The notes under the pieces: model-generated
Told to the model about the DNA's origin: nothing
Database searches by the model: none
The model's input: only the letters and a program-made list of their open reading frames with translations
Part shown: positions 18,401 through 64,000 of the stretch, piece after piece
Layout of the letters: every line of letters begins with the position of its first letter
Position numbering within the stretch: position 1 is the stretch's first letter
Program-made: the position numbers and the translations under genes
NCBI GenBank assembly: GCA_964187785.1
Contig: OZ076409.1
Span: 14,820,001 to 14,884,000, forward strand
DNA: 64,000 bases
From: Amphiscolops sp. MND2022
Lineage: Eukaryota
Direction of reading: 5' to 3'

Positions 18401-18523
18401 GCGACGTATGCACGCTCGCCCTCACCGTCGCAAAGACCAGCTCCCACTACGATCGCTTCGCGATCTCCGTTCCCGCTAGGTCTTTGCTCCTGTTCGACCT
18501 CGCTTAGCAAGATGGGAATATAA

Positions 18524-18887: not shown

Positions 18888-19440
18888 AACAAGACGGGAA
18901 CGCCTCAAGTCGGCGCTATATCTAAGGCTCAAATAAAATCGGGGTGGGCGGAAGTAGGTCGAAGGAACGGGATCGAAAATCAGAGTTAGTCCTCAGGTCG
19001 GCATACCAAATTTTTGAATGGGATCGAAACAACTCGGATCGAAATTTTTATAACGTAGTCAGATATGTTCACATACCCCTAGTGCCCTGAAAGCAGGAGC
19101 GAAGCGAAGCGGAGCGACGTGCCATATGGCCATGCCTCAATATTGCTATTTGGCGAAGGGAGCGAAGCGACCGAGCCATACAACAAAGACGATAAAATTC
19201 GACCGCATTCTATTCGATCCCTGCAATTCGATCAAAAGGTTCGACCTCTGTCCTTCCGACCAGAAAAATCCGACCTATTTACAGCCACCCATAAAATCGA
19301 AGGGGGACCCTTTCGAGGCAAAAAAATTCAAGAAAAAGTCGCAGTGCCGAAAAAATCGGGAGGGGGGAACCTTTACGCTCATCCGGTTTTGTAGGCTACG
19401 TTTAAAAAGTTAAAGCAAAAGGGGGACCCTTTGGAATAAC
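18888..19440 (+). mobile_element. Non-coding interspersed repeat starting AACAAG (possibly Helentron-associated / DINE-like), interrupted by a Mutator-like MITE
   Basis: AACAAGACGGGAACG...AAGTCGGCGCTATATCTAAGGCTCAA, with an inverted relative at 47036-47082; internal GGGGGACCCTTT units. Confidence 0.6.
18942..19290. mobile_element. Mutator-like MITE, copy 2, inverted relative to copy 1
   Basis: Reverse complement of 17778-18128 with scattered mismatches; its own 9-bp TSD ATAAAATCG. Confidence 0.92.
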
Positions 19441-35043: not shown

Positions 35044-35343
35044 TGTTGTTGACAAACAACATAAGCAAGTGACAACTATTGATTGACAGCTCTTTTAGAG
35101 TATGAAACCCCTAAAACTAGTATGATTGACAACAACTTTGACCTCTTACCTAACAGGCTGGTACTTTCGCGTCTGGTTCGGACTGTGTTCAATAATAAAG
35201 CACTAAAAATCCTTTCATACGGAAATTGTAAACCTCATGTGCAGTAAATACATACCTGAAAACGATCGCTATTTGTTTTGACATCATTAAAGCTTCAAAT
35301 TAATTCTTCGAGTTTTTTCTCCTTTTTACTGTCGTCAGTAAAA
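35044..35343 (+). repeat. BEL 5' LTR
   Basis: TGTTGTTGAC...GTCAGTAAAA; 11 substitutions versus the 3' LTR by manual count. Confidence 0.95.
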
Positions 35344-35346
35344 TTC

Positions 35347-35364
35347 TGGTGCCGCGACCCGGGA
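35347..35364 (+). promoter_or_regulatory. Primer-binding site, tRNA-His-like
   Basis: TGGTGCCGCGACCCGGGA, 3 nt after the LTR; resembles the complement of the tRNA-His 3' end. Confidence 0.8.
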
Positions 35365-35386
35365 CCACCAAAAGCTCTCCCAAATT

Positions 35387-35549
35387 ATCCATCCTCCAAT
35401 CGAGAGAATATCCATCCTCCAATTGAGGGAATATCCATCCTCCAATCGAGGGAATATCCATCCTCCAATCGAGGGAATATCCATCCTCCAATCGAGGGAA
35501 TATCCATCCTCCAATCGAGGGAATATCCATCCTCCAATCGAGGGAATAT
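35387..35549 (+). repeat. Seven copies of a 23-bp minisatellite in the BEL leader
   Basis: ATCCATCCTCCAATCGAGGGAAT x7; the first two units have one change each. Confidence 0.97.
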
Positions 35550-35868
35550 TCCTGGAACCCGCTGTTTCTGGGCCTGTCGTGTGGTCGGCGTGTGGAGTCG
35601 CTGGGCTGTCTCCCAAGCTGTAACGAAGAAGGCAACCCCGTTCGAGGGGTCGTGAGTAAAACACTTGACAAAAAAAACCAAACTGAAAAAATATATATAA
35701 TGTTTTTCTTAAATCTCTGAGGCATCAGCGCCTTCCCCTCCTTTTGTTTACTTGTCTCTGACACTTGCGTCAGATCCTTGAGCACTTTTGATCTTTTCGA
35801 AGCATAGTCACAATACCAGACGCAAAAGTGTAACCAGACCTTGATTTGATTCTGATTTTGATTAGTCG

Positions 35869-36467
35869 ATGGTGTACATCATAGGCGCAAGCGGACTCGC
35901 TGGATTGTTTCGAAAATTTTCCTATGCAGAAAAACGCCGGTACGGGCCAAAGATCTTCGCTGTGGGTGGCTTGAGTTTTAATCCAAAAGCAAACAACAGG
36001 TTGAAAATCTTACAAAATTTGCTTGGCAAGGTCCCCTGCGAGGTAGGCGGGACATTGTGAATTGACACGGGGTCATTAGCAACACTGTCGCTGCACATTC
36101 AACCAACAATTTCCAACCCTGTTCGGCCGAGGATCTTTTGCCCATACTTGCTGAGTTTAAAGACCGCATTGCGGCAATTTTATACCTGCAACGCACTAGT
36201 GAAAGGATAAACATCGTTCGAAAACTCTTCCAAAGTAAAATTTTGATTTTCGACGTTCGCAGACACCTGATATCCCGCCTCAAAAGGCAAAATAGTTCTG
36301 TCCAGGCCAATTTGGGGCAATTTTATCCTAGTGTACGTTGCGAAAAACGTCTTTTTGAAACAATCCTTCGCCATCAAAATAACCTTAAAAGTCTTCTCCA
36401 GTTCAGAGCAAAAACCAAACGCCTTTCAAAGGAGAGAAGAGCGAGACTGAAATCCAAAGTCTTGTAG
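35869..36467 (+). pseudogene. Accessory ORF of about 199 codons upstream of BEL gag, SGNH-hydrolase-like
   Basis: MVYIIGASGL...AVGGLSF, a frameshift near 36031, then RDIVN*HGVISNT...IAAILYLQR...ILIFDV...LGQFYPS and a basic tail. Confidence 0.55.
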
Positions 36468-36764
36468 AAAATAACTCACCTTTTGATAAGAGCGAATTAT
36501 CGATCCAGCCCGTTTTTTTTGTTTTTCTAGCGCCTTTCTATCTCTTGGTTGATTTCTGCCCCAACTCATTGGACACTAGACCGCCTAAGATGGTCGTGGC
36601 CTACCGAGTTGGGACTTGAGAATCATTACCTCCGCCCCTCGCAGTTTCGTTTTGGCTAGGTTCTCTCTACTCAACGGACAACAGACCGCTTAAGACGGTT
36701 GTGGCCTACTGAGTTGAGAGTCCTCGTTTTTTGCTCTTTTTTCGACTTTTTTTTGAAGCAAAAA

Positions 36765-39700
36765 ATGGAAGCGTGTGGTTCTAAACCGGAATCATTGCTT
36801 GAAACAGCTTCCAGGCTGTTCAAATCCTGTAATAGATTTGAGAATGAGCTCAGAAATACATATGAAGATCTCGAATCTGTGCTCACCTCTGATACCAAAC
36901 GAAAAACGAAGGTCGAAAGCCTTTTAGGACGCGCCGAAGAGAAGTTGCAAAAAGCTATTGCTCTTAACAACCTACTGAGAGACCTTGCCCCAAACACTAA
37001 TGATCGTCAGAAAACTATCGAAGACCTAGACCAATGGCTCCAAAATGCAATGGCTTGTCACGACAAAACCACGACAAGGGCTCGGGATTATTTGGACGGC
37101 ACTAGCGATAAGGCCACGGAAGATGCGGAATCTGTTCCGTCCCATAAAAGCATTGACTCACGCTCGCATAAAAGTTCACAACCTTCTTCACGAGCTGCTT
37201 CCATGACTTCTAGCCAACGGCGACGCGCCCTGGAGGCTACTAAGTTACGAGCTCAAAAAGCCGAACGTCAAACTGCAGCTGCGATGCAACTTGAAAAGGA
37301 CCGCTTCGACCTAAGACTGAAAGAAATTGCTGAAGAAAAACGCCGCAAATTGAATGAGCTAAAAATAGACGAAATGGAGTTAGCAGGTGATTCAAGTGTT
37401 GCAAATGATGTAAATTTGGCGCCTTTAGGTGTCAACGATGAGGATGGTGGCACTGGTAAGCTAACTGCGGTTTGGGTGCACTCGATCGTGAATCAGACCG
37501 AACGGGAGATGGGCGTTCCTCTCCCAACTGATGTCGTTTCCCCAGCGAGCCGTGCCTTAGACCAGGCTACCAGCTCTATCCTCGACAATGTGAAATCCAC
37601 TACTCACATTGAAGATAACCTGAATCAGTTTGCAGACAACGCGGCGACCGACCAATCCAATGTTATCGACAACACCATTGTGCCGTCACTTCAGCAACAC
37701 TTGAACTTTAACTCCGAAGCCGTGGCAGAACTGCGACCCAACGTCTTTGGTCCGACTGTCATCTCCACTTCGCATTCGCAACAACGTCCTATTTTTAATG
37801 GACAGTCTTCTCTTCTGACTAATTCGTTCGTTCCAAAAATGTCTCTTTGGGTGAATAACCATGCAGCCGCTACGACGTCCTCGTCTCTTACAACTACGCG
37901 GCCTGCTACAATCTTTACTGCTTGTATAAACACGAACGTCGTGTCAACAACTTCAGTTATTCCGCCGCGTGCACATGGTTCTGTTCATTATGAGAGCTCG
38001 CCCTTTCCCACACAAACGCTCATCTTACCGAATACTGGGCCAATATCCGCGCCAACAGGTCACCTTACTCCTTTCGCTGCCTCAACAATTAACATCGCTC
38101 AGCCCGGAGTCACAATGCAAAACTTAGTCGGAGCCTTGAAATCGAACCGCAAGGGCCTTTCCCGGAGTGGACACTTTCCAAGTATGACGGAGACCCGTTG
38201 TCATGGCATGAGTGGTCGGGTCAATTCAAGAGTGCGATCGACTCAGCTAACTTGACGGAGGACGAGAAACTCACCTATCTGAAGACTCTTGTGACTGGTA
38301 AAGCCAAATTAGCCATCGCTGACGTTGCGTACTCCGGACGGTTCTATAGAGATAGTCTGAAAACGTTAGAACGCAAATTTGGCCAGCCACGAGCAGACGT
38401 GGGTGCCTATTTTGATAAGTTAGCTAGTTACACACCTGTCAAAATACATAGTTTCGAACAAATAATTGATTTCGCGAATTTCATTGCAAGTATTATAGGT
38501 GTTTTCCGTTCACTGAACTACGAAAATGACTTGAGAGGAGCTGCTATGTTGAACCAAGCTGTTTACAAACTACCACCAAATCTTCGTGAGCAATTGTCCA
38601 TGCACACAGTAGTAAAAGACATGCTGCGACCTACGCTTATCGACTTTAACGATTGGCTCAAACGAAAAGCAGAAACCCATGAGCGAATGAACGTCTCAGG
38701 AACAAGCAAGCCAAAAGCCGAAGAAAGCAAAGTCAAAAGTAACAGTAAGTCCTTTTCCGCCACAGCAGCAGCTACCGGGTCCACTTTGTCCACTACTCCC
38801 AGGCATGCGCGACGGACCAACCCGGAAAGTGAATTTTTGCCCTGCCCGTGTTGCAAAAGCAAGCACCCATTGTGGAACTGTGATGAATTTAAGACGAAAA
38901 CACCTACACAGCGCGCGAAACTCGCCGCTGATAACAATTTCTGCTTTCGATGCGTGAATGGTGTACATAGAGCCAGTGAATGCGACAAGGACATACACTG
39001 TACATCTCCAGACTGTCAAAATCCACGGCAGCATAATACTTTGTTGCACGGCGCAAGTCGCATCTTCCCATTGCGTCAGAAAAAGTCTTCTTCACCGAAG
39101 TCGAATAAAACAGCTAGCGCTACTGTCTCGAGCGGTAGTAAGTCTACCTGTAGTTATGCCGCAACGGATATCGACACAAGGGGTCTTATACCTGTCGTTT
39201 TGGTGAACTTCTCCAATCGTTGTGGATCTGCGGAAGTCTTAGCTTTGTGTGATACTGGGAGCGTTTACTCTTGGGTATCTGACAAGCTAGCCAAATCATT
39301 GTCTCTCACCGGCTCTCCCTCGAAGGTTGCCCTCAGTGCCATTTTATCCAATCAAGAAGTCATAACCGAACGTGTTGAAGTTGTAGTTTCGTCCCTGTAT
39401 GCCGATCCTCCCTTTTCATTTGACCTTAAACCATTCACAAAATCTTTGACACTCGGAAAGGAGCTCATTGACATACTGGAACTACAAACGCAACATCCGC
39501 ATCTCGCTCCCATCCCTCCCATCGTTTATAATTACTCCGATATTCAGCTCATTATTGGTCAAGACGCGTATTACGCTATTCACCCAATTATTGCCTTCAA
39601 GGGTGACCCCATGAATGACCCGTGGGCTGTTCAGCTGCCGTTAGGGTGGGCTCTATGTGGTGCAACACCTGAGCGAACGTCCGCTTCGTTGTCTCCACGT

Positions 39701-42700
39701 GTTTTAAGGCTACTGTAGAAGATCTCTCATTGGCGGAACAGGTGAAAGCGTGGTATGACCTGGAATCTTATGAATCTTATGGTTCCTGCGTCCAAGCCGA
39801 TCCTCGCTCTGCTGCGGACAAGCGTGCAAACAAAATCCTCGAGGCAACCACCGTGCACGATGGAGAGCGATACTCAGTCGGCATGCCCTGGGCGACAGAC
39901 AACGTTTCGCTGCCTAACAATTACTACACTTCACTGGTCCAGCTGAAATCACTTGAACGGAGACTGGAAAAAAACCCAGAACTCAAATCAAATTATATCA
40001 ACACTGTCCACGATGATCTTCAAAAGGGTTGTGTGATCCCCGTTGGTGAGTTTAACCCCGAATGCCGTTCCTCACGAGATTGGTATTTGCCACATCACCC
40101 CATGGTAAACCCGAACAATCCGGGGAAAGTTCGACGGGTACTAAACGGGGCGTCAAAGTTTCATGGCAAGTCGCTGAATAGTTGCCTGTTAACAGGCCCT
40201 GATCTCTTGCAAGACCTGTTAAACGTCCTCCTTCGCTTCCGACAGTATCAGTATGCAGTTTCAGCAGATATTGAAGGAATGTTCCTTCAGGTCGGTGTGC
40301 CTCCTCCAGATCAAACAAGCTTGCGTTTTTTGTGGCGGGAGGACCCCACACAGAATGTGGAGACACTCCAGTACACGAGACACATTTTTGAAGCGAGAGA
40401 CTCGCCGACGTGCGCTAACTTTGCGCTTCAACAAACAGCTAGAGACAATGAAGCCACTTATCCTCTTGCCGCAAAAGCCGTCCAACAGAAGTTCTATACG
40501 GACGACTACCTCGACTCTGTTGAGTGTCCTGAAACTGCTTTGAAACTGAGTCAAGAGCTAATTGAAATGCTCAAACTAGGGGGCTTCAAGTTAACAAAGT
40601 TCATTAGTAACGTAAACGATTTATCCGAAACACTTGAACCGTCCGTTCCTGTCCCACAAGTTAAAGAATCAGTCCAACACCCAACGATCACGTCGCATGT
40701 TTTAGGTCTCAGATGGGATCACAAAGCTGACACTTTGAATGTGAGCCGAGGCGTTAAGTTGAAGGAAAATCGACCCAACACACAACGCACTGTGTTGAGC
40801 ACGGTCTCTGCCGTTTTCGATCCGCTGGGAATTGTCGCACCCTTTACCGTCGTTGCTCGCGTGCTCTTGAAAGATATTTGGAAAATCAAAGGGCAACAGT
40901 GGGACGATCCACTGCCCGAAGACCTCTCTCGCCGATTTAATGTTTGGTGTTCCGGACTACCGTAGCTTCAAGACTTAACAATCCCTCGCGCATATTTCTC
41001 TAGCCCAGTCGAAGAAATTGAGCTGCATTTGTTCGGTGACTGCTCCAAGGACATATTCTGCGCTGTAGGCTTCCTTCGAGCTAAGTGTCAAGGTTCAAAT
41101 ATTGCGCATTTGTCATTCGTAGTAGGCAAAGCACGTGTTGCGCCTATGAAACCAATAACAATTCCTAAACTCGAGTTGCAAGCTGCGCTCCTCGCTGCAC
41201 ACTTACGTCAGAAAATCCTCGGTGCAATAACTTTTGATGTGCCACAGTCTTTCATGTGGACTGATAGCAGCACAGTGCTTCAATGGCTTGCTTCGGCAGA
41301 TAAACAGCCTGTTTTGTTGCGAACCGCGTAGCGGAAATTTTGGAAACCACGACAATCGACCAATGGTTTCACGTTCCTACTGCTAATAACCCTGCAGATG
41401 CTGGAACGCGCGGACTCGCTGCAGCAGATCTTCCAAGTTTTTGTTGGGTGAAAGGGCCTAATTTCCTTAGAACATCCGACTGGCCGTTTGAACCGGAACC
41501 ATCTGCCATTTACACTATTAAACCAACGGAAACGTGTGCAACTGACGAATTACAGTCCAACTCGCTGGCAGCAGCGTCGCCGCCTAACTCCTCCGTCATA
41601 GCTTGGAGTAACTATAGTTCTTATCGCAAGCTAATCCGAATTGTCGCTTACCTTCTTCGGCTTTCGCCTCGTTACCGCCATTTTCGTTCCATTAATGGCA
41701 AAATTGAGGACCCGAGCGAGTTGGAGAATGCCGAAACGAAACTACTTTACTTGTTGCAAGTAGAGTCTTTTTCTAACGATCTTCTTGCCGCCAAAGGACA
41801 AAAGTCCGGCAAACTCCGTCTCCTATCATATTCCCCTTTCATTGGACCCTGATAAGTTGCTACGTTCACAGAGCCGACTGCGGCGTCTTTCAGACGTTGG
41901 GTACGACACCAAACACCCCGTAATACTTGATGGCAAACATCCTTTCGTCAAGTTAATGCTGATACATCTGCATCAAATGTACCATCACCTGGGCTTTGAC
42001 TACGTAAGAGCCCAAGTGGGCCATAAGTACATCATTCTGAAGAACCGCTCCATCCTCCGAACCATCCGCTACCAATGTATTCCTTGTCGAAAACGTGACG
42101 CCGTAATCGTAAACCCCATGATGGCAGACTTACCGAAAGAAAGGCTTGGTTATCTGGAACCACCCTTCAGTAACTGCGGGGTGGATTACTTTGGCCCTTT
42201 CTTTGTTTCTATTCGGCGCAGCTCGGAGAAAAGATGGGTGTTCCTGTTTACGTGTCTCACCACCCGAGCAATACACCTGGAAATAGTTAGTTCAATGGAC
42301 ACCAGTGCGTGCGTTGCCGGAATTGAACGCTTCATAGCTCGGCGAGGAATGCCCAATGTAATATGGTCCGACAATGGAACTAATTTTATCGGGTCCGAAA
42401 AAGAGCTCCTCGAGGTCACCCGTCGTTGGAATGACTACGCGCCAGCGGCACTCGTGTGTAAGGGTAATCGGTGGAAGTTCAATCCGCCCAGCGCCCCGCA
42501 TCATGGTGGGTCCTGGGAAAGAATGGTCCGGAGTTGCAAGAGAGTTTTCTACAGTATCCTCGGGAACCGTAGAATGACAGATGAGACTCTGAACACAACC
42601 TTTTGCCTGGTCGAACAAGCACTGAATAATCGCCCGCTGACGCCCGTTAGTGACGACCCGAACGAATTGGAAGCGCTAACGCCTAATCACTTCCTTTTAG

Positions 42701-43116
42701 GCCGATCATTCCAAGCATTACCAAGTCTAGTTCCGGGAGATGAACCAGATCTCCTCCGACGGTACACTAAAGCCCAAGCCTATGCCAACGCAATATGGGT
42801 TAGGTCGATGAAAGAATACGTACCATCGTTGCATAAGCGTGGTAAGTAGAACAAGAACTCTGATATCAGCCTGGAATCAGGGGACCTCGTGTGGGTTGTC
42901 GACAGTGCAAACCCACGAGGCTGTTATCCACTCGCTCGCACAACATCGTTGCGTTATGGAGCCGATTCCGTGTCCCGCTCCGCCGAGCTGCGAACTTCTA
43001 CCGGTTCACTTTTTCGTCCGCTGATCAAACTTCCTCCTGTCTTCGGGCCAACATCTTCGTTGGGGGCGGAGGATGTTGTTGACAAACAACATAAGCAAGT
43101 GACAACTAATGATTGA
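36765..43116 (+). pseudogene. BEL gag-pol polyprotein with several frameshifts and stops
   Basis: KLTYLKTLVTGKAK; three zinc knuckles (CPCCKSKHPLWNC, CFRCVNGVHRASEC, CTSPDC..HNTLLH); protease ALCDTGS; WYLPHHP, SLNSCLLTGPDL, ADIEGMFLQV, FYTDD; TIPKLELQAA; NPADAGTRG; integrase GVDYFGP, SDNGTNF, GGSWERMV, LTPNHFL. Confidence 0.95.
43062..43073 (+). promoter_or_regulatory. Polypurine tract
   Basis: GGGGGCGGAGGA immediately before the 3' LTR. Confidence 0.85.
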
Positions 43117-43373
43117 CAGCTCTTTTAGAGTATGAAACCCCTAAAACTAATATGATTGACAACAACTTTGACCTCTAACATAACAGGCTGGTATTTTCGC
43201 GTCTGGTTCGGACTCTGTTCAATAATAAAGCACTAAAAATCCTTTCATACGGAAATTGTAAACCTCATGTGCAGTAAAAACATACATGAAAACGATCGCT
43301 ATTTCTTTTGACATCATTAAAGCTTCAATATAATTCTTCGAGTTTTTTCTCCTTTTTACTGTCGTCAGTAAAA
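43074..43373 (+). repeat. BEL 3' LTR
   Basis: Direct repeat of 35044-35343, followed by TSD ACGGT. Confidence 0.95.
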
Positions 43374-48152: not shown

Positions 48153-49737
48153 TCAGATGGCCTAGCATTGACCTGCCGTGTTTGTATATGAAAACTAGCG
48201 GTACTCAAAGACTTGCTGAGAAAAGAATTTGAAATCCTTGCACACTCCTGGTAGTACTTTTTTCTTTTTTCTTCAATTATATAGTCTTTTGCACTCTTGC
48301 TCAGATTTTGTGTTGAGGTCTATGGATTGATAAAACGTGATATCGATCGAGACACTCTATCCAGCGTCCCAACATGGTTTGGTTCAATGAGTATTTCTTC
48401 AGCAACAATCTGGATAACATTCTTCTTGAAAGTGGAAAAAATTGGACAGTCTCTGTCACGTCTGCTCGATCTCTTCAGTTAACCAAGTTTTACGCCGCCC
48501 TGTGTTCTGCGCTCAGTACTGCGCATCGGTACCGGACACTGCTTGTTTCGTCACTTAGTGAAGACAACAAAAAGACTGTATCTTCACTTAGTGGGATCAA
48601 ATTGTGATATCATGTAGATATCATGACCTTCAAAACAACGAACCTAGACAGAGATCATACTATTGTTGTTAAACATAAAACTCTAATTACTGTCAATTTG
48701 AGTTTACTACATTTTGTGTTGTACAATAGATCATTGACCATTGTACTTGAGATTGATACCATAGATTAGTTACTGAAGAAGATACAAATTTATCGTCTTA
48801 GATAAAGAACCTTTTTACCGTGATAGACCGAGATTACAACATGGCGCAGTCAGCAAGATTTACTTTTATCCGTAAATTCAATTTTAACCTACCAAATACC
48901 AATGACGACGACCAAGAGTAATTTATTGCTACCATACCTCGAAGATACCGGACTCGATGGGAAAAAATTATACACCCCCAAAGAATGGACCGAACGATTA
49001 CGGCATTACATAAAACGATCCCAAATTAAACCTCTTCCTTGTAACGTAACACGTCCAACACTCCAGAAAGTGAGAGTAACTAACTTAGTCGTCCTTCAAT
49101 TGTGGCGAAAAGTCGAAAGATGTGAAGGAATGAATTGAGAACTAAAGTGGTCCTTAGACCTAGCTTGCATACAGCTTTGCAATCGGTTTGTGTTTAACTA
49201 GATCCAACTTACAACATTTAACTTTACAACTATTCGATAAATTTAAGATGAAGTATAAAAATTGACATTTTTGTGTATTATGATCGCTTTTGGCTATGTA
49301 AATAAACCTTATGGCGAGTCGTCAATGTCAGCTAGGTTGTTTCAAACGTTACAATTACACAAGGCAATTATTACTGATGTAAAGGCGTGGCATTTGCAGT
49401 AGCGCAATGGGGCTGATCACGCTATTTGAATGCCGAGTAAAGTGACCTTGTAAAGTACACCTATCAGGGTAAAAGTGCTCAAAAAAGAAGATGACCTTTC
49501 AACTTAGCCCAGGTATTTGTGGTGTTCCCCTGCAAACGTGTGCCCTGTTTCATATATGTATGAGTACCAATTTCCGAGAAAACCAATATGGAGGGGTTGA
49601 AGAAATGTGCGATTGTATGGCTTCAAAAATTCATGAATATTCATAAGCATTTTGATTTCTAACCATCATGATTGTACTCGACTTTAATCAATTGCGACTG
49701 ACTGGTACCTAGTTTCATTGTGGAAAATGGTTTCGTT
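48153..49737 (+). repeat. Copy A of a 1.58-kb direct duplication
   Basis: Matches 50687-52271 at offset 2534 with scattered substitutions. Confidence 0.95.
48603..49020 (+). mobile_element. 5' stub of an LTR retrotransposon: LTR 48603-48841, PBS and gag start
   Basis: TGTGATATC...TTACAACA followed directly by TGGCGCAGTCAGCAAGATT, then MTTTKSNLLLPYLEDTG...KEWTERLRHYIKR. Confidence 0.7.
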
Positions 49738-50686
49738 CTCAGCGATCATTATCCCACTGTGTTCAAATGCGCAGTGGTGAAGTAATCTGCCAAACCTGCA
49801 CTCTCAACTTGTTCATTTTCGTTTGATTCAACTGAACAGATTTCGTTGTTCCTTGCAGCATGGTCGGATTTTGAATTCCGGAGAATTTCCTCAGCCTACA
49901 TCTGTCGACCTTCCATTCTCATCTAATATTTGGAATTTAGCAAATCTCTATATTGAAAACGAGGCTGCAGGATAATTCGTTCTTTTCATCTTCTCTTTCC
50001 GAAATTGATCAAACACCGAAATTACTGATGAACCAAAATTGATCCGAAATACCACGCAGAAAACTTAAGGAAAAACGGAACGGCAAAGAAGGATTTCTGT
50101 TTATGTTTTGCGTTGGATAAAGTTTGTTTTCTGCTCAATGCTTCAGCTCAAAGCACGCATTACGACGCCAATCGGGGTTTTTTTTTCAAGAAAAGACAAA
50201 AGTCAGTTTTCGCACCTCCCAAAATGTGTTTTCGAGAATTCACAAAAATTGTACACTTCAACGAATCAGCAGCGCCGCCAAAATGATTGGAAAATTCACA
50301 CACTATTTTTCTTGAACACCCTTCTTGAACATGTTTCTGAAAAGTCTCTGGATTCTCTAACGCTTTCGGGCATCTTCAAACATTTTTTCGAATTCATCGA
50401 ACGCTTTCGCAAGTCTGGGAACTTTTTATTGAATTGAATAAATCGATGAAGAAACGAAACACTGATACACAAACTGTATTTGATTAGAACAAATTCCAAT
50501 GATAATTATGTTGTTTTGTGCAACATTGTTTTGTTTCATTTTTTGTTTCTAGATATTTCTTTGGTTTTAATTTCAAAAAACGAGGACGTTTTCAAAAAGG
50601 AAGGAAGTCTTGAATCTCCTGAATGACTGAAACTTGGATACCTCTCTACTTTAATCAATAAAAATCTGATTCTGTGATGAATTGTC

Positions 50687-52271
50687 TCAGATGGCCTAGC
50701 ATCGACCTGCCGTGTTTGTATATGAAAACTAGAGGTACTCAAAGACTTGCTGAGAAAAGAATTTGAAATCCTTGGTCACTCCTGGTAGTACTTTCTTCTT
50801 TTTTCTTCAATTATATAGTCTTTTGCACACTTGCTCAGATTTTGTGTTGAGGTCTATGGATTGATAAAACGTGATATCGATCGAGACACTCTATCCAGCG
50901 TCCCAACATGGTTTGGTTCAATGAGTATTTCTTCAGCAACAATCTGGATAACATTCTTCTTGAAAGTGGAAAAAATTGGACAGTCTCTGTCACGTCTGCT
51001 CGATCTCTTCAGTTAACCAAGTTTTACGCCGCCCTGTGTTCTGCGCTCAGTACTGCGCATCGGTACCGGACACTGCTTGTTTCGTCACTTAGTGAAGACA
51101 ACAAAAAGACTGTATCTTCACTTAGTGGGATCAAATTGTGATATCATGTAGATATCATGACCTTCAAAACTACGAACCTAGACAGAGAGCATACTATTGT
51201 TGTTAAACATAAAACTCTAATTACTGTCAATTTGAGTTTACTACATTTTGTGTTGTACAATAGATCATTGACCATTGTACTTGAGATTGATACCATAGAT
51301 TAGTTACTGAAGAAGATACAAATTTATCGTCTTAGATAAAGAACCTTTTTACCGTGATAGACCGAGATTACAACATGGCGCAGTCAGCAAGATTTACTTT
51401 TATCCGTAAATTCAATTTTAACCGACCAATTACCAATGACGACAACCAAGAGTAATATATTGCTACCATACCTCGAAGATACCAGACTCGATGGGAAAAA
51501 ATTATACACCCCCAAAGCATGGACCGAACGATTAGGGCATTACATAAAACGATCCCAAATTAAACCTCTTCCTTGTAACGTAACACGTCCAACACTCCAG
51601 AAAGTGAGAGTAACTAACTTAGTCGTCCTTCAATTGTGGCGAAAAGTCGAAAGATGTGAAGGAATGAATTGAGACCTAAAGTGGTCCTTAGACCTAGCTT
51701 GCATACAGCTTTGCAATCGGTTTGTGTTTAACTAGATCCAACTTACAACATTTAACTTTACAACTATTCGATAAATTTAAGATGAAGTATAAAAATTGAC
51801 ATTTTTGTGTAATATGATCGCTTTTGGCTATGTAAATAAACCTTATGGCGAGTCGTCAATGTCAGCTAGGTTGTTTCAAACGTTACAATTACACAAGGTA
51901 ATTATCACTGATGTAAAGGCGTGGCATTTGCAGTAGCGTAATGGGGCTGATCACGCTATTTGAATGCCGAGTAAAGTGACCTTGTAAAGTACACCTATCA
52001 GGGTAAAAGTGCTCATAAAAGAAGATGACCTTTCAACTTAGCCCAGGTATTTGTGGTGTTCACCCGCAAACGTGTGCCCTGTTTCATATATGTATGAGTA
52101 ACAATTTCCGAGAAAACCAGTATGGAGGGGTTGAAGAAATGTGCGATTGTATGGCTTCAAAATTTCATGAATATTCATAAGCATTTTGATTTCTAACCAT
52201 CATGATTGTACTCGACTTTAATCAATTGCGACTGACTGGTACCTAGTTTCATTGTGGAAAATAGTTTCGTT
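50687..52271 (+). repeat. Copy B of the duplication, cut at 52271 by an LTR
   Basis: Matches 48153-49737; includes the second LTR-PBS-gag stub at 51137-51555. Confidence 0.95.
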
Positions 52272-52580
52272 GTCGAACCCATGCTGTTGGGCCGGCTTTG
52301 AAGGACCTTTTGAGCTAGACGGCTGAGATTCGTTATTATTCTTGCTTACTATCGCCATCATTAAGTCCTTCAGTTGACTAAACTCCTGGTGTAACTCGTT
52401 AATTCGGCGTTCATAACTTTCTTTTATTTCAGATAACTGAGAAGAGATATCTGAATTGTCGTTGGTGTCAGAATCATTTGAGTTTGCCTGAGCCATGTCT
52501 GGATCTGTTGGAGAAGATGTTTCTGACGAAGAATTTATGACTCTACCGCTCCTAAGTTCGGTACCTTGATCTGGGTTCAT
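52271..52580 (-). CDS. ORF start inside the LTR (probable gag N-terminus, coiled coil), open across the LTR end
   Basis: MNPDQGTELRSGRV...SQLSEIKESYERRINELHQEFSQLKDLMMAIV...QHGFD; LRSG is a common gag N-terminal motif. Confidence 0.55.
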
Positions 52581-54190
52581 GTAGCCGAGAGAAAAGAATT
52601 ATGAGTGAAGACTGGATTATTTGAGATGCTATTCGATGTATTTTACTGATTTAAATGGCTATTCGATCTCAAAATTCACTAATCTGAACTGAGATGTTTT
52701 AGAGATGAAGTCGTACAAGCAAGTAAGTCGTTAGGTGAGAATAAGGAAATTAGCAAGGTAGTTAGGAAAGTTCATCCAATTTTCATCGCAATCGTAGATG
52801 CACCAAGGAAATTACTCAGTTTCAGTTCTATAGTTTCTGAAGATGAAATAGAGATATATTTTCAAGTAGATTTTGGCGTGAACTATTCAACTGGATGGTA
52901 GCTTGTCGCAATTCGGTCTGAGTAATCGCTAATGGCGGTCCAAATTACAGCAGTTCACGTGTCTTTTCGGTTGGTAAGACGCTAAATCTCTTACCAACCT
53001 TCTCTCATTGGCTGTTACCAGCTGGTGTTAAAATGGTAAGTCACGTGACCGGTGTTGTGAACTGCCGCAAAGTGGCCACGCATCATGGTACATCTACATA
53101 TGTTAATGGTGTTTAGTCATCAATTTACAATGTCGCAATTGCCTGCACGCAGCATCATGGTTTCTATAGCAACTAAAATTAGCTCAAATCATTCAATAAC
53201 GCACTAATTTCAAGTCAATTTAAGATAAAGCACGATTCGGGATTGGAAAACGATGTTTTCCGCTGATTCTAGCGCCAAAACCAATGATTTAAAAATTGAA
53301 GATGGAAATGCGATGAACTTGTAAGAATATTTGCTGATTTTCAAGTCTAGTTTAGCTCTGGATGAAAATGCGATGAATGGTGGTCTTTCTCGCTCGAAAA
53401 TCAACACAATTTAAACTGACGATGATAAAAGGATGAACTCCACGTATAATTTGCCAATTTCCAGCACAGATTAAAATGACGATGAATTCGGGATGAATTC
53501 AGTCGATAAACGCTAATTCTAGCACAATTGAATTTTTGGCGATGGGTTTAAGATGAACTTGTCAGTTAAAACAGCAAATACCAAAGCAATACAAATTGGC
53601 GATGAGTTTAGGATGAACTCACCAGTTAAAACACCGAATACTAAGGCAATTCAATTTAGCGATGAGTTTAGGATGAACTCATCCACTAAAATGGTTAATT
53701 ATCAGCACGAACGAAATCAAGATGAATTAAGGATGGGTTTACTAAACAAATCAGATAACCAGCACTTTCACTCTTTTTTAGGATGGATTAAGGATGTACT
53801 TTCTCATTTCCCTTCTACGCTAGTGAATACGATGATTAAAGGATGAATTACTGTCCTTTAAGTAATGAGAAGCACATTGAAATTTCTTTACATGAAATAC
53901 AACGATGAATTTAAGATGAAATTACTAAAATAAGGTCCCATAAAATCCGCTGATGGATTAGTGATGAAAAGTCAGTTTAACGTCCCAATCGTTGTTCATA
54001 TGCAATTCCGGAGATGAAATTGCGATGAACTTCATTCAAAATAGCTCTAAATTGAATCCGCTGATGGATCTAATGAATTTATCAGTCAATTCGGGTTCAT
54101 CGTTAAGTCCGCTGATGGACTAGCGATGAACTTCATGAAAGTGTTGTCACGACTACAAGTCCTGAGGCGGGGAGCTAGTAGAAGTTAACA
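52271..54190 (-). mobile_element. Putative long (about 1.9 kb) LTR, probably the 3' LTR of a large Gypsy element
   Basis: Minus strand reads TGTTAAC...GGTTCGACA and is preceded by purine tract AAGAGAGACGAAA; it abruptly interrupts the duplication. The 52271 end is firm; the 54190 end is less so. Confidence 0.6.
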
Positions 54191-55057
54191 TTTCGTCTCT
54201 CTTGTATCTCTCGGTCCAGTTTGACCCGAAAAACTTCTCTCCCTTGTCGTGACAAACCAATATTTATGAAATATAGCACATTCGAGACTATTTGGCAAGA
54301 TCATTTATGCGGACACCGGAACTAGAGCGCTCAGTATTAAGTAAATATATATAACTCAAACTCATGGGGGAATGGGGATTAAGTATAAGTAACGTAGGGT
54401 TGCTCACAACCATGGTTCTTATTATTTGACATCATATTGCCCATATCTAAGTACATAAGACATAATATTTACATTACAGATATTTAGTAGATTATATTTC
54501 CATCATGCTGGCATGACACTCCTCGGGACGGGATTTGGACTGAGAGTGCAGGGGCCAAATGTGCAGAGGATGGTTGTCTCGGCGTTGGCTTCGACTGTTT
54601 CCTTCGTTTGGTTAGGGAGAAAATTGATCCTTCGTTAGTTCTGAATTGGCATTTCCTTCGTTTGTTCTGTCCTGTGTAAACCTTCTCTGAGAAGAGGACT
54701 TTCGGCAATCGTCATATCTGGCTTCATGCTGGGTGATTTTGGTTATACTGTTTCGACGCGGCAACTCTAGTTCTTGGCCCATCGAATGTCCGCTGATCTG
54801 CATTTTATTGGTTGTCATGCTTTTGATGGGAGTTTCGGCTGGTTATTTTTCGGTAGAAGCTGATTTCTCGGAGAAAAGTTTCCCTCCAAAACGCCTACAC
54901 TGAACAAACAATTCGACTAACCTCATTGACAAGTTGGCAGCGAGTCGGGGATGAATGAACGATAAATTGTTTACACAGCGAGACATCGATGTTGATTTAG
55001 CAGACGACTGGCGCCGTTGCTCTACTATCAGTTTTCGCGATAGGAAAGAGATGAATT

Positions 55058-55660: not shown

Positions 55661-58600
55661 ATGTCCGACATCCACTTTGTTTATTCTCTTCCAGAGACTG
55701 AAGCTACAGAAAGTAAGTGCACTATTTTTCTTTTCTTTCACAAACGGGTTAGGGAACAATTAGGTACTGAAGGCGCGTCTTGGTTTTAGCGGACTCAGTT
55801 CACTCTGTCGGCGTCATTTCTGAGCTGACTACCTTGCAGACCGTGCTGCCTCAAGAGGCTCCTGAAGTTCAAGCAGCAGCTCCCGTACCTCAGTTTCAAC
55901 CTGATCAACCGCTTGGTCAGGCTCCCAACGTCCCGTACCTTCCGCAGTGTAAGTTCTGTCCTTCCAGATCTTCAATTCAGTCTACCATCTCTTCATTTCT
56001 CATCTCTGGTCCCTTCAGATGTTGACTCTTTCCGTTTGATGTTTAGATCACTATCCTTGGTATGCTTCCCTCGGTAGCATCACCTTCGGGTGGTATGATC
56101 GCCACATGCGGGACATGCTACGAGATAGCATCCAGCAGTATAGTGAGTTGACTCCTTTTCAATTTCCGTCAGTACTAAGGCATCGTCCGGACACTCCGAT
56201 GTAATTCCGATATAAACATCTCATCTGCATGTAGTGCCCTTCGCGGTCGATTACCTATAAAATTCTTTTTTTAAAATGAATTTAGGATGTGTCATGGACG
56301 TTCACAGTCCTTCGTGACTGATTCACTGCAAATTCTATTTTTGAAGATGATTTTTAGATGAATTCTTCTCCGGTCTTCTTTCTTCGCGCGGCGTACGCGC
56401 TCGTTCTTCTCCAATCGTCGTCATCTGATTACTGTTTCTTCTTTCAGGCCCGACTCCCATCCATGCGCCAAGACCTCGTCCTATTTCCTACTCAGTGGGT
56501 ATAGGGACGAGTGATTTTGGTGCATCCCAGATTGATGCCGGCACACAAGTGCGCCTCCTCCCTTGGAGATGTCTTCTTTTCTCCAGGACCTCTGTTTGGA
56601 TGCAGTTAGCTCTCCAGTGGCACGTGCCCCAGTGTCGGTGCTTTCGCCGAACTTTCAGCGATTCCTGGACCGCGAGTCAGCAATTCGAAGTCCTCCTCCT
56701 CCTCGCGTCACTGTAGACGCAGGAGTCAGTGCCGTCGTCACTCCTGTGGATGTGGCAGTCGATGCCTGCGTGGCTGTTGTTGACCAGTCCATTCAGGCCG
56801 TTGTGGAAACTGGCGAGACTTCCACGGATTACGATCCTCCTGTGGAAACTCTTTCGGCTGCTCCCTCTTCGCCAGCTGCTAGTGTCCCTGAAATTGTGGA
56901 GGCTGACGTTGAGCAGTCTGACGTGCCATCAACTGACAGCACTGAGACCCTTCTTGAGGCAGTCGAGGATGTCCCTGCTGGTGATTCTCTGTCCGCTGAG
57001 CCTGCTCCGGAAGGTGCTGTTCCCGGTCTGGTTCCTGTGTCTGCTGAGACGTCTCCCATGGGACCCAGTCTGGTGGACTCCGACGACGAGCCCATTGCGT
57101 CTCGTTTACCAGGTTACCTAAACAGCTTTAACCCTGTGAAGTATCTGATCGGTAGCTTTTATTCATTTCTTTTTTCGTTTACACTTTCACTAGCGTTTTT
57201 TACGTCTTTCTTCTTTTCCATCTATTTTCCATCGTTTTTATGTTTTCGCTATATGGTTTTCTGCAGTTTTTCATCACTTTCTCATCGTCAAAAGTCTTGA
57301 ATATAGCGTTTTTCTTTTCTGGTCATTTTTTAGAACTTTCCATCTCTTTTACATCCTTAAATTTTTTCGTTCGTCTTTTAGCTATTTTTCGTCGTTTTCT
57401 TTTCAGTTTACATCTCTTTTTCATCGTTAAGTTTTTTTCTTCGTTTTCGCTTATATTTCCAATGAAAATATTATTTTACATCATGTTTTCATCACTCCGG
57501 GTGAACGTTTTTGATTTTTACGTTTTACTTTTGCATTTTTCGATTTTGCGGATGTGTGACGGATGATTTTAGTCGTTGTCTATGATGATTTGTAATGATG
57601 TTACTTTTGTTCTAGTGTTTTGTTGTGATCATCAGGAAGGAAGGTGATCAAGTCCGGATGGTTTGATCATCCATACTGCGGTCTGGCGCTAGGATATGCA
57701 CGCAATCACGAGTCGCGCATGTCCTATGTGCGATGCCTAATGTGCAAGAGAGACGTTAAGGTGGGCAGCCGAGGCATTACCACCTTTATGGAACATTGCC
57801 GAGGACTGCGTCATCACCGTCAGGATTGTGTGATCCGTTTACACCGTGGGCTTCCGTTGCGGCGACGTGATGGAACGCTCATGACGAATGAAGAGAGCGC
57901 CGAGTGTCGTGTGAACTTAGGTGGGGTGACTGTACCCTTCATTGAGACCTGTCCGTCACTCAGTGTTTTGGAAGTATTAGAACTGGAGGGGGCTGGGCAG
58001 CCAGTGTGGGGAGAAGACGAAGAGGGGGAAGACTGGCCAGAAAAGACTGTGCGCTTGTTTGTATGCTTCGTGGTCGACGCTCTGTACCGCGATTGTCAAT
58101 TTAGTGGAGTTGCTAATTTGTGGGAAGTGCTGGTGTCGTCGGATCCCCAACATGCGGTCTTGTTTGGGCCAACTTGCGCGTTGTCCGACGTGATGGTGAG
58201 AAATTTGATTTTGCGTTTTCTGTTACGTTCGATATAGTATGGATTTTCTATTGTTTACTATTGAAAAGGAGGGTGGGGGGGGCGGTATAATATTATGATG
58301 TATGGTTTCGAAAGACCTTATGTTGATTTTAGAGCGTTGTTCTGCTTGGCTTGTGGCCGTACGTAATGCGGAGACTGATTACCATCTGGAGCAATAGTGA
58401 GTACAGCAGTTTCCATCTGACAGTGACTGGTGGGCGAGTGACTGGTACGGTTACAGTGTGTGGCATGGACGGAGTTAGTCACTACACTGTCTTCTGCTTC
58501 AAAATGGCTCGTGACTGGGAGGGTCGAGTGATCACTTGGCTGGTAAACATGTGGTGTTGTATGCTCGGAGAGCCTGTTCCACTTGGACTGTGCTGTGATG

Positions 58601-60219
58601 CGTTGCCGCAGCTGAGTGGACTGTTCCGAAGCACCACTGGGGTTGGCCTCGTGGACGTAAAACCCTTCACATTGTCGGATGTGAGTCGGACGATCGTGGA
58701 TGTGGCTGGTCAAGTGCTTGGTGGGACTGATATCCATGTGGTTCTTAACCATCTTCAGAAGCGCTTGAAAGGATTCGTGAAGGATCCTTTGCTGTTGGCG
58801 TGTCCGCATTTGCTGCAAGTACGTATGATTTCATGATGTGATGGTATCTATGTGTAGTAACGTGTGAACGGAGTGTTGAGGGGGGGTTTGTATTGAACTT
58901 CATAATGTATGCAGTTAATTAATATGATGTTATTTACAATTTAGGCGGTTCTTTCTGGTGAGGTATTTGTGTGGACGCTCGCTGATGTGTGCGAGGAATT
59001 GAGGAGTAACCTGGCTGACATTGTGTGTCTGTGGCGATTTGCCAGTGGAGATGGACCATTGGACACACTTGACCTGACCTTGCGAGCAGAGATTGGGATT
59101 CCAATCAGGCTACAGGCGCTCAGTCTAGTTTACCGTGCTCGTTAGTAATTGTTATATTCCTGGTGGAGTCTTGTCGGGTCACTTCTAGATGGGCTATTGT
59201 GGGGTTGTTATTTTCGTTTGAGTGAGGGGGGGGGGTGGTCATACAAGTTGCATGTGGAATTTATTGTACCTTAATGTTTCAGTGGTGAATTCCTACGAGA
59301 AGAGTTTTGGTGCCTCTTCAGTACGCAGTTGTTACTGGGCGTTGGAAAGTGCCAGTTTCATAAGAGAACTGATGTCGACTCTGGATGACGATGACCGATT
59401 GCCAGCAGCATCGGACACGCGTTCCGTTTGTTCGTGGACGTGGAGAGTTATGCCATCTCCGAGGTTAAACAACAAGTCCTGATTGACAGTTTTCTTGCCA
59501 ATAATGAAGTGGATGTGGGCGGATGTCTTTATGATGAAGATATGTCCCGAGTGCCAGTCTTCATTCTGACTGTCGTGAAAAATGTCAGCGCATTGCCAGG
59601 AGTCCGGGATGATGTGTCCTTTGTTCGGAGTGTGTTTAGTCTCCCAAGTCTCAATATTGTTCCTGAAGATGTCCTATTGGCCGAAATCCGGGTATTTACG
59701 GATCTTCTTGTTGAGTTAGGCCGAATCTCGTATGCAGAGCAAGGACACATGGAACGTGGCTTCCTGGAATTCATCAGTAACTATCGACGTGGTTCTGGGA
59801 CGACCGGAAGTGCGATGAATCTGTCGGTGTTGGACCTCCTGAACTATTGTACTAATCGAGGTGCCCAGAATTTATTGCGAAGTATATTTTGCTTGGACGG
59901 AGGCATTCAGAGTAACAATACTTTGTTGTGTGACGGAGTTGGCCATTTAAGCAGCGACGTAACGAGTGGTGTATGTGCCATTATAGTGAGCTATCTTTCT
60001 TCCAGCAGTATTCGGAGCTATGAAAGTGTGAGTGGTCCTCTTCTAGACGAAGTTGCAGAGTCACACCGGCGCTTAGTCGATCTCAACGAGCTGACCGAAA
60101 GTATGTTGTGGGACGACATTGGGATTGTGGCTGGCGAAGATTATAGACTGCGCTTATATTCAAACCTGGGGTACAGCATAAACGGGGAGCGGGCTGCTAG
60201 TCCAGAAATTGGTGTTTAA
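55661..60219 (+). pseudogene. Multi-exon gene, lightly frameshifted, encoding an acidic/Pro-rich N-terminus, a BED-like zinc finger and a hAT-transposase-like body
   Basis: Phase-compatible exons 55661-55712, 55790-55948, 56019-56142, about 56358-56392, about 56449-57112, 57636-58195, 58333-58818, 58945-59140, 59283-60219. Motif VRCLMCKRDVKVGSRGITTFMEHCRGLRHH. Apparent frameshifts near 56040, 56550 and 59420. Confidence 0.7.
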
Positions 60220-62872
60220 CGCCTGTACTTAGTTCACGTTTATTTGAAACTGTTTTATCTTTCATGTTATTTTGTTTTACTGTATGTTATAGTATTGTAT
60301 CTAGCAAATGGGTGACCAATTTATATGTCGCATAAAGTGACATGAGAGGAAAAGAAGAAATGCGCTGCGTCGGAAAAATCGGCAGTGTACTATGTACAAG
60401 TTAAATATTTGGCACCCGAAATTGTTTCTCTCTTGAGTTAATAGTGAGTGGGAATGCAGGTAGAGTTCAGTTAGTTTCACACTGGTTAAGTTCGTTTGGT
60501 AGGTTGCGTCAATCGGCGGCTCTGTGTTTTCATTGGTCATCGCTTTCACATCACTTTTCAGTTGATAGAATTTGTAGGAGACTTTTGTCATGTTGTTCAT
60601 CGTTATTACATCTCGTGTAAATGTAGTTAGATAATCAGTGCTTCGTTTTGATTTTTCATCTCATTTTCATCACGTTTTCCTCAGTCGGCCGAGCGACGTC
60701 GCGAAAACTGTTTTTCTCATCTTTTTTACATGGCTCGTTATATGTGAATCAGTGCATGTTGTTACATGTGGGTTTTCTACATAGATCATCGTTTTTTCAT
60801 CTTGCGTTTTCATTTTATCATTTTGGCGAGTTATTTGCTGTAGTTCATCGTTTTTGCATCGCAAGTTTTGACTTGTCGAATTTTTGCTCATTTTGCTGCA
60901 TAGTTCATCTTCTTTTCATCGTAATTTTGGAAAATGTTTATTTTGCGTGTTTTCGTGTTTAGTTTGCTATAACGTAATCGAGGATTGCGTCTTTTATGGT
61001 GGATGAGGGCATTTTATCAATTTTGCGGTGGTTTCGGAGTGTTTTCTTCATGTATTTTAGTGTTAAATGGTGTTGATCGTTTGTCAGGTTGTCGAGATTG
61101 CATGAATTTTAGTGTACATGTGTTATACTCATTTTCGTTGCGTTTCGGATTTGTCATAGTTTGAACATCATTGCATGAATCATTTTTTCGGACTCTTGTG
61201 ACCGCCGCTCGCGTGGCAGTCGAAGAGATGTTCACTCAGCAATGGTATTGGTACCCCGTAGGCGTGCAAGGTACTTGAGGTACCAATCCAGAGCTGGGTG
61301 AGTGGAGCTGCTCCGCTCCTTTCAGATGAATGAAATCTTTCGGATTTGAGCTATATATAGTCTTCATGTTTTTTTTACGGTCGGTTGTTTGTCATCAGAC
61401 GTCGAAATGGGTTTGTCCATTTGACGTTTAATCTGATCAATCAGGGTGATTGACATCTACGGCTTTGCATGTTTCGAATTTTTAAAGTTTGTGATATTGT
61501 GTGGTTTCATGTTCGCGTGTTTTCATAATGTATTCCTTTAAATGGGTTGCCCCATTATTGACATGTTGTTATATGTTCGGTGTTAGTTTCATGTATTTTA
61601 ATTTGGTGTTTTTATTTTCGTTCATTTGGACAGGGATTTGTCGTCACAAAGCCCCTACAAAACTAACTGAGAATCCACTAGCCGCTGGATAACCAACGCA
61701 GCAAGCTTCATCCGAATATGGTTGTGAGCTCCCCGGCTCAACTAACCAGCACTCTTTTCAGAGAATTGCCAGCCAGTACGAAGAAATGTTTTTGGCTTTT
61801 CGATAGGGGTATTTTGCTTGTTATGAACTGATGTTTACTGGGGGGGCTCACTCCTTTCTTCGTTTTGTGGTTGTTTCGTCAGTTCTTATATTTTGCATGT
61901 AAGTTAGTAGGCTTCATGTATTTTCGATTGTTTGTTTCATTTTTATTCGTCTAGGTTTGTATGGCGTTGGTGTGAATTGCATATATTATCTCGTTCATTT
62001 TTAAACGGTACATGTATATTTCCGTGTGTTGCTCATTTGTATTGCATGTAGTTTAGATTTGTCAATTTCTTTCGTGACGTCATTGATTTGGCAGGTCTTT
62101 GAACCTTACATGTATTGATCATTTCATTTTTGTGTGGCATAATTCTATTTGCGTGATTCGAAATAAAGTCGGCTGTTTTTATCGTTTCGTGGAGTTACAT
62201 GTTGTTTGGGAATTAGCTGATTTATTGTGATGTTATGTGGATGGTGTTTCCCATCACAAGGAGGTTTTCGTAAGTCATTTAATATTTTCGAACTTCCATT
62301 TAGACTAAATTCATCGTTTTGACATCCTCCAGCGAAGCTAGAGTATCGTGTCAGGCTGACGATAAATTCGATCACGATTTGATGGTAGTTTCCATCACAA
62401 ATTCATCTCATTAATTGTTTTCATGTAAGTTCTGAATAATTGAATCGAGTTCATCGCTAATTCATCCTCTAGCCGAGCTAGAGTATTATGATAGCATGAA
62501 CGTGAGTGCGTTCGCATTCTGATGGCATTTTCCATCTCCAATGCATCGCTAGTAAATATTGCATGTTGATTGGTCAAATTTTTGACTAAGTTCATCACTT
62601 TTTCATCTCTCGTGTGTCTGAGATAAATTTTCATGTGATTTCATCCTTTTTCATCTCAAAATTTTTATGTGTTGTTTTTCTGGTTTTTTGGTCGTTTTTC
62701 ATCCGTTTTACATCGTGTTTCGTCTTTTTGCGTATTTCATGTAGTTTTAAGTGATTGTTCATCTATTTTACATCTTCATGTTCGTTTTAAGTTGAAATTG
62801 CATGTAATTGACTCGTTTTTGTGAATTTTCATCCGTAACTCATCGTGTGTTTAGAAATGTGGTTTTTCATGG

Positions 62873-64000
62873 CTAAATCGTTACGTTTACTTTGTTGGTC
62901 TTTCTCAGTGCGTTTCTAGCTGCAGTAATCTCATGAATGAGGAAATCAGGATATGTTTTCGGTGTAGGGTTCTCGCGTAACCTGTACCTACTCTGATTGT
63001 TTCTAGACGGTCTAGAACTCATCCTTCCCTCATCTTCAGTTTGCGTGTTTGTCTGTTGTGATTGATTTTCGTGTTGTTCGTCTCTCAGAGGTACTCTTAT
63101 CCTACTTTCATCGCGGGGGGGGGCGGTAGAATAATTTCCTCTTGCGTTCCAAATCTAACTGTAGGTGGTCTAAAGTTGTTGTGGTCAGTTTCTACTTGCT
63201 GATAGTCTATTCTCGTGGTTATTTCTGGTGGAATTACTTGTGGACTGTGTCGTTCTTGTACCTGCGGAACTATTTCTTCTGAAGGCTCTTCTTCGACTAA
63301 GTCTTGATCTAGATTGTCATTCTCATTCTGATCTACTTCGTCGGAATATTCGAGTCGAAAATGTCCGTGTCTTCAACCCTTTCAGTGTCTTGGTAGAGAT
63401 GTTTGGACACCTTGATGTCATCAATCGGAAATTCCGGTTTGAACAACCTCAGTCGCATTCTGTGGACGCACTGAGTCTGGTGTGTGCCTACTTTGCGGAT
63501 GATGTAGTTGCTATCGGATAGCACTTTCATCACCTTGTACGGTCCTTTCCAATGGAAAGTTTTAAACTCTTCTTTGCTTCTCTGAGAGTCGTACTTAGGA
63601 TCTAGTAGGAACACAAATTCATTCACCTTCAGTGGCTGTGCTCGTGCTTTTCTATCATAGTACATTTTGTACTTGTGATATGTGGAAATGATGTTATCTA
63701 GATTGTCTCTGAAGATGAAGTTCATTTTGTCTAGAATTTCATTCACGTCCTTGCACTTTGTTTCAGCCGGCTTGTTTGCGTTTCGGAATTGCAGATCTAG
63801 TGGGTTGTATGGTGTTCTGCCGTGGAAAATTTCAGTTGGTGAACATTTCAGTGAATCATGATACGTTGTGTTATGGGCCATGATTGCTATGTCGACATAG
63901 TGGTCCCATTGTGGTCTGTCTGCGTTTACACTAATTTTAAGGATCTTTTTCAGTTTCGCGTGCGTTCTCTCCACCATGCCTATTGTCTGTGCGTGCTTTA
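62873..64000 (-). mobile_element. Ty3/Gypsy integrase C-terminal half and tail; the element continues past the window
   Basis: HAQTIGMVERTHAKLK, WDHYV..AIMAHNTTYH..LKCSPTEIFHGR, WKGPYKV (GPY/F), VHRMRLR. Stop at 63333, then a tail with RYRLRENPTPKTYPDF. Confidence 0.92.

Follow-up and report, generated by a model that had tools for sequence, protein, structure and literature searches.

The window analysed here, 64,000 nucleotides of contig OZ076409.1 from Amphiscolops sp. MND2022, contains part of a 19.1-kb Ty3/gypsy long terminal repeat (LTR) retrotransposon, which lies on the minus strand and runs on past the window end. It was classified from its pair of 2.25-kb LTRs with TG...CA ends, its target-site duplication (TSD) and the order of its coding regions: gag with zinc knuckles, protease, reverse transcriptase (RT), RNase H and integrase. 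A further gene, here called the cargo gene, lies on the plus strand, antisense to this carrier element, in the interval that separates the 3' LTR from the integrase. The greater part of its predicted protein very probably derives from a cut-and-paste transposase of the DDE type that has lost its catalytic residues.

Comparison of copies gives the cargo gene eight predicted GT-AG exons between 55661 and 60219 (Table 1). The preliminary description of this DNA had placed the cargo protein at 57636–60219, and all the motifs it quoted were found there on the plus strand; that stretch comprises four predicted exons, F–I, the 3' two-thirds of the gene, and four more lie upstream of exon F, with the start ATG at 55661. 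The AG/GT ends and lengths of blocks F–I are constant across 27 copies, with few exceptions. Between subfamilies the introns are 37–64% alike, compared with 73–98% at codon positions 1 and 2 and 38–69% at position 3. Because GT-AG sites and exon lengths are shared by subfamilies whose introns have diverged, and change falls mostly at third codon positions, the exon structure is not a product of chance. Under the eight-exon model the frame from ATG to stop is open in 6 of 13 copies (1043–1062 amino acids), and the window copy is disrupted by two frameshifts. The protein has an added N-terminus of 320–340 amino acids that is acidic and Pro/Ser/Thr-rich (13–14% D+E, 4% K+R, 11–13% P), and exon I ends in a conserved LWDD...ERAASPEIG tail. 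Intronic blocks at 56200–56400, 57120–57150 and 57400–57500 are conserved at 83–88% across subfamilies, and exon E has an atypical donor (GTTACC/GTTACA); cis-acting signals in the sense RNA are one possible explanation and hot spots of exchange another. Among the loci P0028, P0033, L081 and L123–L125 there are deleted copies that fuse exon G to the C-terminal tail, and loci in which cargo exons are tandemly repeated.

Table 1 Features of the carrier element and the cargo gene (window coordinates unless marked)
Feature	Position	Strand	Remarks
TSD, TTCGT	52266–52270		5 bp; same five bases after the other LTR, ~7.4 kb past the window end
3' LTR of the Ty3/gypsy element	52271–54518	-	TG...CA; 98.6% identity with the 5' LTR
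Oriented GATGAA cluster	53271–54146	+	In the LTR's inner portion (inferred U3); contains tandem 60-bp units (53536–53715)
Predicted exon A	55661–55712	+	ATG start
Predicted exon B	55790–55948	+	Pro/Gln-rich
Predicted exon C	56047–56142	+	Short aromatic motif PW..LGS...GWYD, present in all three clades
Predicted exon E	56448–57112	+	Acidic Pro/Ser/Thr-rich linker; frameshift near 56550 in the window copy
Left exchange point of the transposase-derived cassette	57400–57600		E/F intron; conserved intronic block
Predicted exon F	57636–58195	+	BED-like finger, then helices matching the transposase pre-catalytic region
Predicted exon G	58333–58818	+	Aligned with the RNase H-like core; other residues at first Asp, second Asp and CxxH
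Predicted exon H	58945–59140	+	R of RW absent; W retained in 97% of rows
Predicted exon I	59283–60219	+	Helical insertion domain; Glu helix present, the Glu itself absent; frameshift near 59425 in the window copy
Spacer, cargo gene to pol	60220–63090	-	GATGAA-rich; right exchange point near 60500–60600
Integrase, C-terminal part	63333–63998	-	RT, RNase H, protease and gag with zinc knuckles run on past the window
5' LTR	69154–71396 (extended coordinates)		Beyond the window

A DNA search of the 1.07-Gb eukaryotic genome, in which 40 of 265 candidates were scored, returned 42 matches at 67–100% identity; protein searches gave 933–1257 candidates, with 127–150 scored per search, figures that should not be read as copy numbers. 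A tree of 20 complete rows resolves three deep, well-supported cargo clades, and the lowest identities between proteins are 21–25% in exon I, 26–38% in exon G and 43–48% in exon F. The ratio of nonsynonymous to synonymous change (dN/dS) is 0.07–0.13 in all six between-subfamily pairs, which refutes neutral evolution. It is 0.04–0.26 in the 7 unsaturated of 11 further pairs, 0.17–0.28 over exons A–E, and 0.22–0.65 in seven close pairs, as expected where mutations follow insertion; no pair compared had an excess of amino-acid change. The cargo gene is under purifying selection. Integrase and pol of the same lineage adjoin it on the opposite strand in four of four whole elements and in four of four divergent loci tested, and its antisense position between pol and the 3' LTR holds in every clade tested.

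The origin of exons F–I was approached through a donor-like transposase family. This was traced from a hAT motif to a fragment of another DDE family, and from there to 37 related places, eight of which were fetched; a metagenome scan (80 loci of 297 relatives) extended the set, and a profile of 151 open reading frames (ORFs) was assembled without cargo input. Exons F–I align with this profile collinearly over 593 columns, from the finger to the C-terminus, with an hhalign score of 61.3 (P 2.6e-6). The highest score was 21.4 among 30 column shuffles and 27.8 among 20 block shuffles, and the reversed profile scored 16.7. Exon I matches by itself (91.6%, P 8e-7), as does exon F (P 7e-4). Conversely, a hidden Markov model of the cargo protein matched 37 of the 151 transposase ORFs at E<0.01 and none of 334 other ORFs of the same loci. 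The P values are pairwise, and the whole-profile match on its own would be borderline at the scale of a Pfam-size library, so that the collinearity and the controls carry the argument.

These data were weighed against a chance match of helical profiles, with the cargo protein being of other origin. Such a view could draw on the way the donor family was sought, via a hAT motif, and on searches of Pfam, PDB sequences, Atlas and fold libraries and with single-exon models, none of which gave a significant match for the cargo protein. The models of exon G (pLDDT 57; a helix, three strands and a helix, the order expected for an RNase H-like fold) and exon I (pLDDT 54; all-helical) found no match in a fold search. 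Direct comparison with Ac-type hATs of the same genome also gave a match at the finger alone, within the range of the shuffles. A chance likeness would nevertheless have to produce a collinear alignment from finger to C-terminus with identical C-x2-C-x16-H-x5-H spacing, a score far above every shuffle and the contrast of 37/151 with 0/334 matched ORFs, and we consider it highly improbable. Exons F–I very likely descend from a hAT5/hAT6-like DDE transposase, judging from these alignments: collinear homology to this family extends over the core, the insertion domain and the C-terminal region. The link to canonical hATs is a two-step one, running through the hAT5/hAT6-like family.

The donor-like family carries the motifs FDE, MDGP, CGLH, RW and VERGFS and a finger of the same spacing. 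Its profile aligns with Ac-type hATs over 306 columns, including the finger, both Asp residues, CxxH and RW (score 55.4, given without a shuffle control). It has no Pfam model of its own, and PF05699 appeared weakly in 2 of 20 proteins scanned. One such family in the genome has CAGGG...CCCTG terminal inverted repeats (TIRs) in four of four copies, with TSDs of 5, 5 and 6 bp in the three testable copies; these sizes fit the hAT5 and hAT6 groups, which have 5- and 6-bp TSDs (PMC12730594), 8 bp being the usual size among hATs. No TIR with a TSD of at least 5 bp was found in 20 metagenome loci. The DDE residues, CxxH, RW, the Ac-type profile match and the short TIRs with TSDs place the family in the hAT superfamily; the label hAT5/hAT6-like was given from motifs, TIRs and TSD sizes. 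Four loci (L181, L182, L187 and L188) are internally deleted hAT5/6-like DNA transposons of 1.3–1.6 kb with TCAGGGAA subterminal repeats. The cargo protein aligns end to end with this family, which shares the motifs and TSD sizes of hAT5/hAT6-type transposases. It differs in lacking D, D, E, CxxH, the R of RW and the coiled-coil tail, which is replaced by a conserved acidic motif; in its new N-terminus and C-terminal motif; in residing inside an LTR element; and in a coding region split by three introns, the long donor-like ORFs being intronless.

No part of the protein is better conserved than the finger. Its spacing is C-x2-C-x16-H-x5-H, one residue shorter than the x17 first reported; the Cys pair is invariant and the His pair near-invariant in 33 exon-F sequences down to 43% identity, and 17 of the 26 invariant columns of exon F fall within residues 32–82. 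It aligns with the donor-family finger and is of BED type, and the Atlas leads for it were zf-BED clusters at 0.80–0.81. Residues C54, H60, C64 and C105 are also invariant in the 33 sequences (window 57736–57950) and are a possible second metal site. In contrast to the finger, the catalytic residues are gone. Cargo columns aligned with D, D and E hold Y/H/S/G, V/A/E/S and L/N/V, and no column near them has D or E in at least 85% of rows; the Asp in CCDAL is confined to clade 1. The C and H of CxxH are lost. The YSSFHLTV strand aligns with the FDES strand of the first Asp, and the NLLRSIFCL...HLSSDV block with the HGQASVERGFS block of the Glu, neither acid being present. The earlier proposal of a hAT-derived fold that had lost its catalytic Asp and the Glu of ER.FS is thus upheld by alignment to a hAT-related DDE family; its hAT origin stands by way of the hAT5/hAT6-like family, and not by direct Ac-type comparison, which did no better than shuffles.

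The transposase-derived exons are exchanged between elements as a cassette. Among four of five whole elements the synonymous difference (pS) in pol is 0.02–0.24, against 0.53–0.86 in their cargo exons; in one pair it is 0.02 for RT, 0.08 for gag and 0.68–0.78 for cargo, and integrase values of 0.05–0.13 compare with cargo values of 0.5–0.87. Four of 11 divergent loci are mostly 86–99% identical to the window up to about 57400–57600 and then 40–66% identical across exons F–I; three of these four regain 84–86% identity at 60600. These shifts, together with diverged cargo beside near-identical pol, indicate that recombination swaps old alleles of the transposase part between near-identical backbones.

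The non-coding DNA of the element is rich in a short oriented motif. GATGAA is the top 6-mer in the LTR, where it occurs 19 times on the plus strand (1.8 expected; 9.8 per kb), and in the spacer, where it occurs 19 times on the minus strand (3.2 expected; 7.0 per kb), but it is rare within the cargo gene, at 1.5 per kb, and beyond the element, at 1.1 per kb. This pattern is repeated in the other four elements. In gag-pol, too, TTCATC ranks first among 6-mers, though more weakly (13 against 2.8 expected). The motif varies with the finger: in clades 1 and 2, with ITTF in the finger helix, TTCATC occurs 119 times and TCCATC once in the 3' flanks of 21 loci, and in clade 3, with Ser in the finger helix of 10 of 11 loci, TTCATC occurs 11 times and TCCATC 33 times.

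Taken at a little better than even, our favoured reading is that the cargo protein acts as a self-targeting transcriptional or anti-silencing regulator of its own element, a role close to the one first suggested and now with the motif arrays in its favour. It would bind the GATGAA-type arrays and turn on, or hold open, the element promoter. hAT fingers bind subterminal repeats, and by analogy the BED-like finger may read the oriented arrays in U3 and spacer, probably as part of a dimer such as hAT transposases form. The dead transposase body would serve as a multimeric scaffold and the added N-terminus as an activating surface, an acidic Pro/Ser-rich N-terminus being more typical of activators. 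Host pressure or self/non-self specificity may keep many old cassette alleles circulating. We infer transcription, splicing, DNA binding and the direction of the effect from sequence.

Several points weigh against this reading. Repeated short motifs are usual in LTRs, and the arrays could be host-factor sites; the donor family's own subterminal repeat is TCAGGGAA, not GATGAA. The motif/finger switch lies on one branch of the tree and, as a single evolutionary change in a clade that differs throughout, is suggestive only. Exons G and H have no match of their own to the transposase profile (P 0.12 and 0.08), and Pfam zf-BED was detected in 12 of 33 members, at best E 0.0016, below the cut-off. 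Per-column alignment confidence at the catalytic positions is low (0.12–0.43), which does not undo the loss of the conserved acids, since that loss is independent of exact register. The splicing is predicted from conservation, and activation is not distinguishable from repression on present data.

The same origin, and the same motif and finger evidence, would fit a self-repressor, a copy-number brake or sub-lineage immunity factor that binds the LTR arrays and thereby lowers the rate at which cognate elements are transcribed or integrated. The lineage is highly abundant and has been active recently (LTR pairs are 98.6–100% alike in four of five whole elements) and the N-terminus is more activator-like, so we think a repressor unlikely, even if swappable, deeply diverged alleles suit a self/non-self system and retroviral antisense proteins are cited as regulators in PMC11963269. 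Retention of the whole transposase body at full length, beyond the finger, and the motif clusters in both LTRs could instead point to a role after reverse transcription, in which the protein binds arrays on the cDNA ends and, reusing the end-synapsis scaffold, partners integrase in nuclear import, end pairing or chromatin tethering. The cassette recombines freely against an almost invariant integrase, unlike a tight co-evolving interface, and the internal spacer, distant from either end, contains half of the motifs; this role too has only a small share of our confidence. Somewhat less probable again is counter-defence by protein contact, with the protein a decoy or inhibitor of piRNA or chromatin factors, or a selfish toxin-antidote, and the arrays serving a host transcription factor. 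The body does diverge faster than the finger and old alleles persist, but the lack of excess amino-acid change, the conservation of the finger and the motif variant that tracks the finger clade argue otherwise.

Host-domesticated transposases, reportedly including ZBED and ZNF862, resemble the cargo protein in keeping a DNA-binding domain, with a degraded catalytic triad and purifying selection; FAR1/FHY3 and MUG also belong here (bioRxiv 10.64898/2026.08.24.746577). Those are fixed host genes, whereas the cargo gene was domesticated by another mobile element and has high-copy, exchangeable alleles. VANC of VANDAL and TnpA of En/Spm offer a further comparison. VANC, described as MAIN-like (PMC13547354), binds short motifs that are densely packed in one orientation within the non-coding DNA of the element encoding it (PMC5735166), and the carrier element likewise has dense oriented short motifs in its non-coding DNA. 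Transposases are described as sequence-specific activators, with TnpA derived from one, in bioRxiv 10.64898/2026.08.24.746577, where the word retrotransposon is absent. The likeness is an element-encoded factor with motif variants by lineage, and for TnpA also a transposase origin; the difference is that both serve plant DNA transposons, while here a class I element would be making use of a class II enzyme.

The nearest precedent is the antisense ORF of Retand, TRP28 (Transposase_28, PF04195), its origin left open by its authors. Together with Grande gene23 and RIRE2 it belongs to the antisense accessory ORFs of plant Ty3/gypsy elements (PMC7264820; PMC11963269), which share the position between pol and 3' LTR, presence in most copies, nearby repeats and a proposed nuclear regulatory role. 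In these sources their origin is called unknown and no similarity to other transposable elements is noted. TRP28 is a short plant-only domain of unknown role, unlike the whole DDE transposase in eight predicted exons described here, and PF04195 matched no cargo member scanned. Antisense accessory genes and transposase-derived regulators are thus known; their combination was not found in the literature searched. That search, by titles and abstract openings, turned up no paper describing an LTR element with an accessory gene of hAT origin; it did not extend to Repbase Reports, subscription journals or supplements, and a Repbase entry could exist.

Some further features of the carrier element and its surroundings were noted. 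The gag frame starts inside the LTR (window 52271–52598; extended 69154) and continues across the primer-binding site TGGTGACA..., so that the gag start is duplicated in the 3' LTR. Pol beyond the window (L031:1577–4978, minus strand) has, between protease and RT, a weak match to dUTPase (E 0.098), an unusual segment for Ty3/gypsy. The element is inserted into a tandem duplication of ~2.5 kb, 98–99% alike (window 48153–52274; extended 71397–72352). At 35036–43365 is a BEL/Pao-type-looking LTR element, classed from motifs by eye, with LTRs 96% alike, a broken gag-pol on the plus strand and a 23-bp tandem array. Exons at 4129–15514 on the minus strand resemble, by eye, a carnitine acyltransferase host gene; near them are a hAT fragment (12100–12894) and a 2.1-kb inverted-repeat element (17151–19290).

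Antisense accessory genes of LTR elements are known, with origin and role stated as open (PMC7264820), and the cargo gene is one whose origin can be traced, to an entire cut-and-paste transposase that a retrotransposon keeps in disarmed form. A candidate target motif is at hand, as is a naturally occurring variant of specificity (finger helix Thr/Ser against TTCATC/TCCATC), so the idea of transposases as ready-made regulators becomes testable across transposon classes. The exchange of old cassette alleles between elements with a common pol points to a conflict not previously recognised, and may help to explain the lineage's rise to the order of a thousand copies. Tentatively, and with slightly less than even confidence, we suggest that a class I lineage domesticated a whole class II transposase as a sequence-specific anti-silencing factor, with an activation domain from four new exons, matching LTR arrays, and ancient cassette alleles shuffled between near-identical backbones. 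If true, this would be a transposon-encoded anti-silencing system outside plants, in which one transposon class has tamed another.

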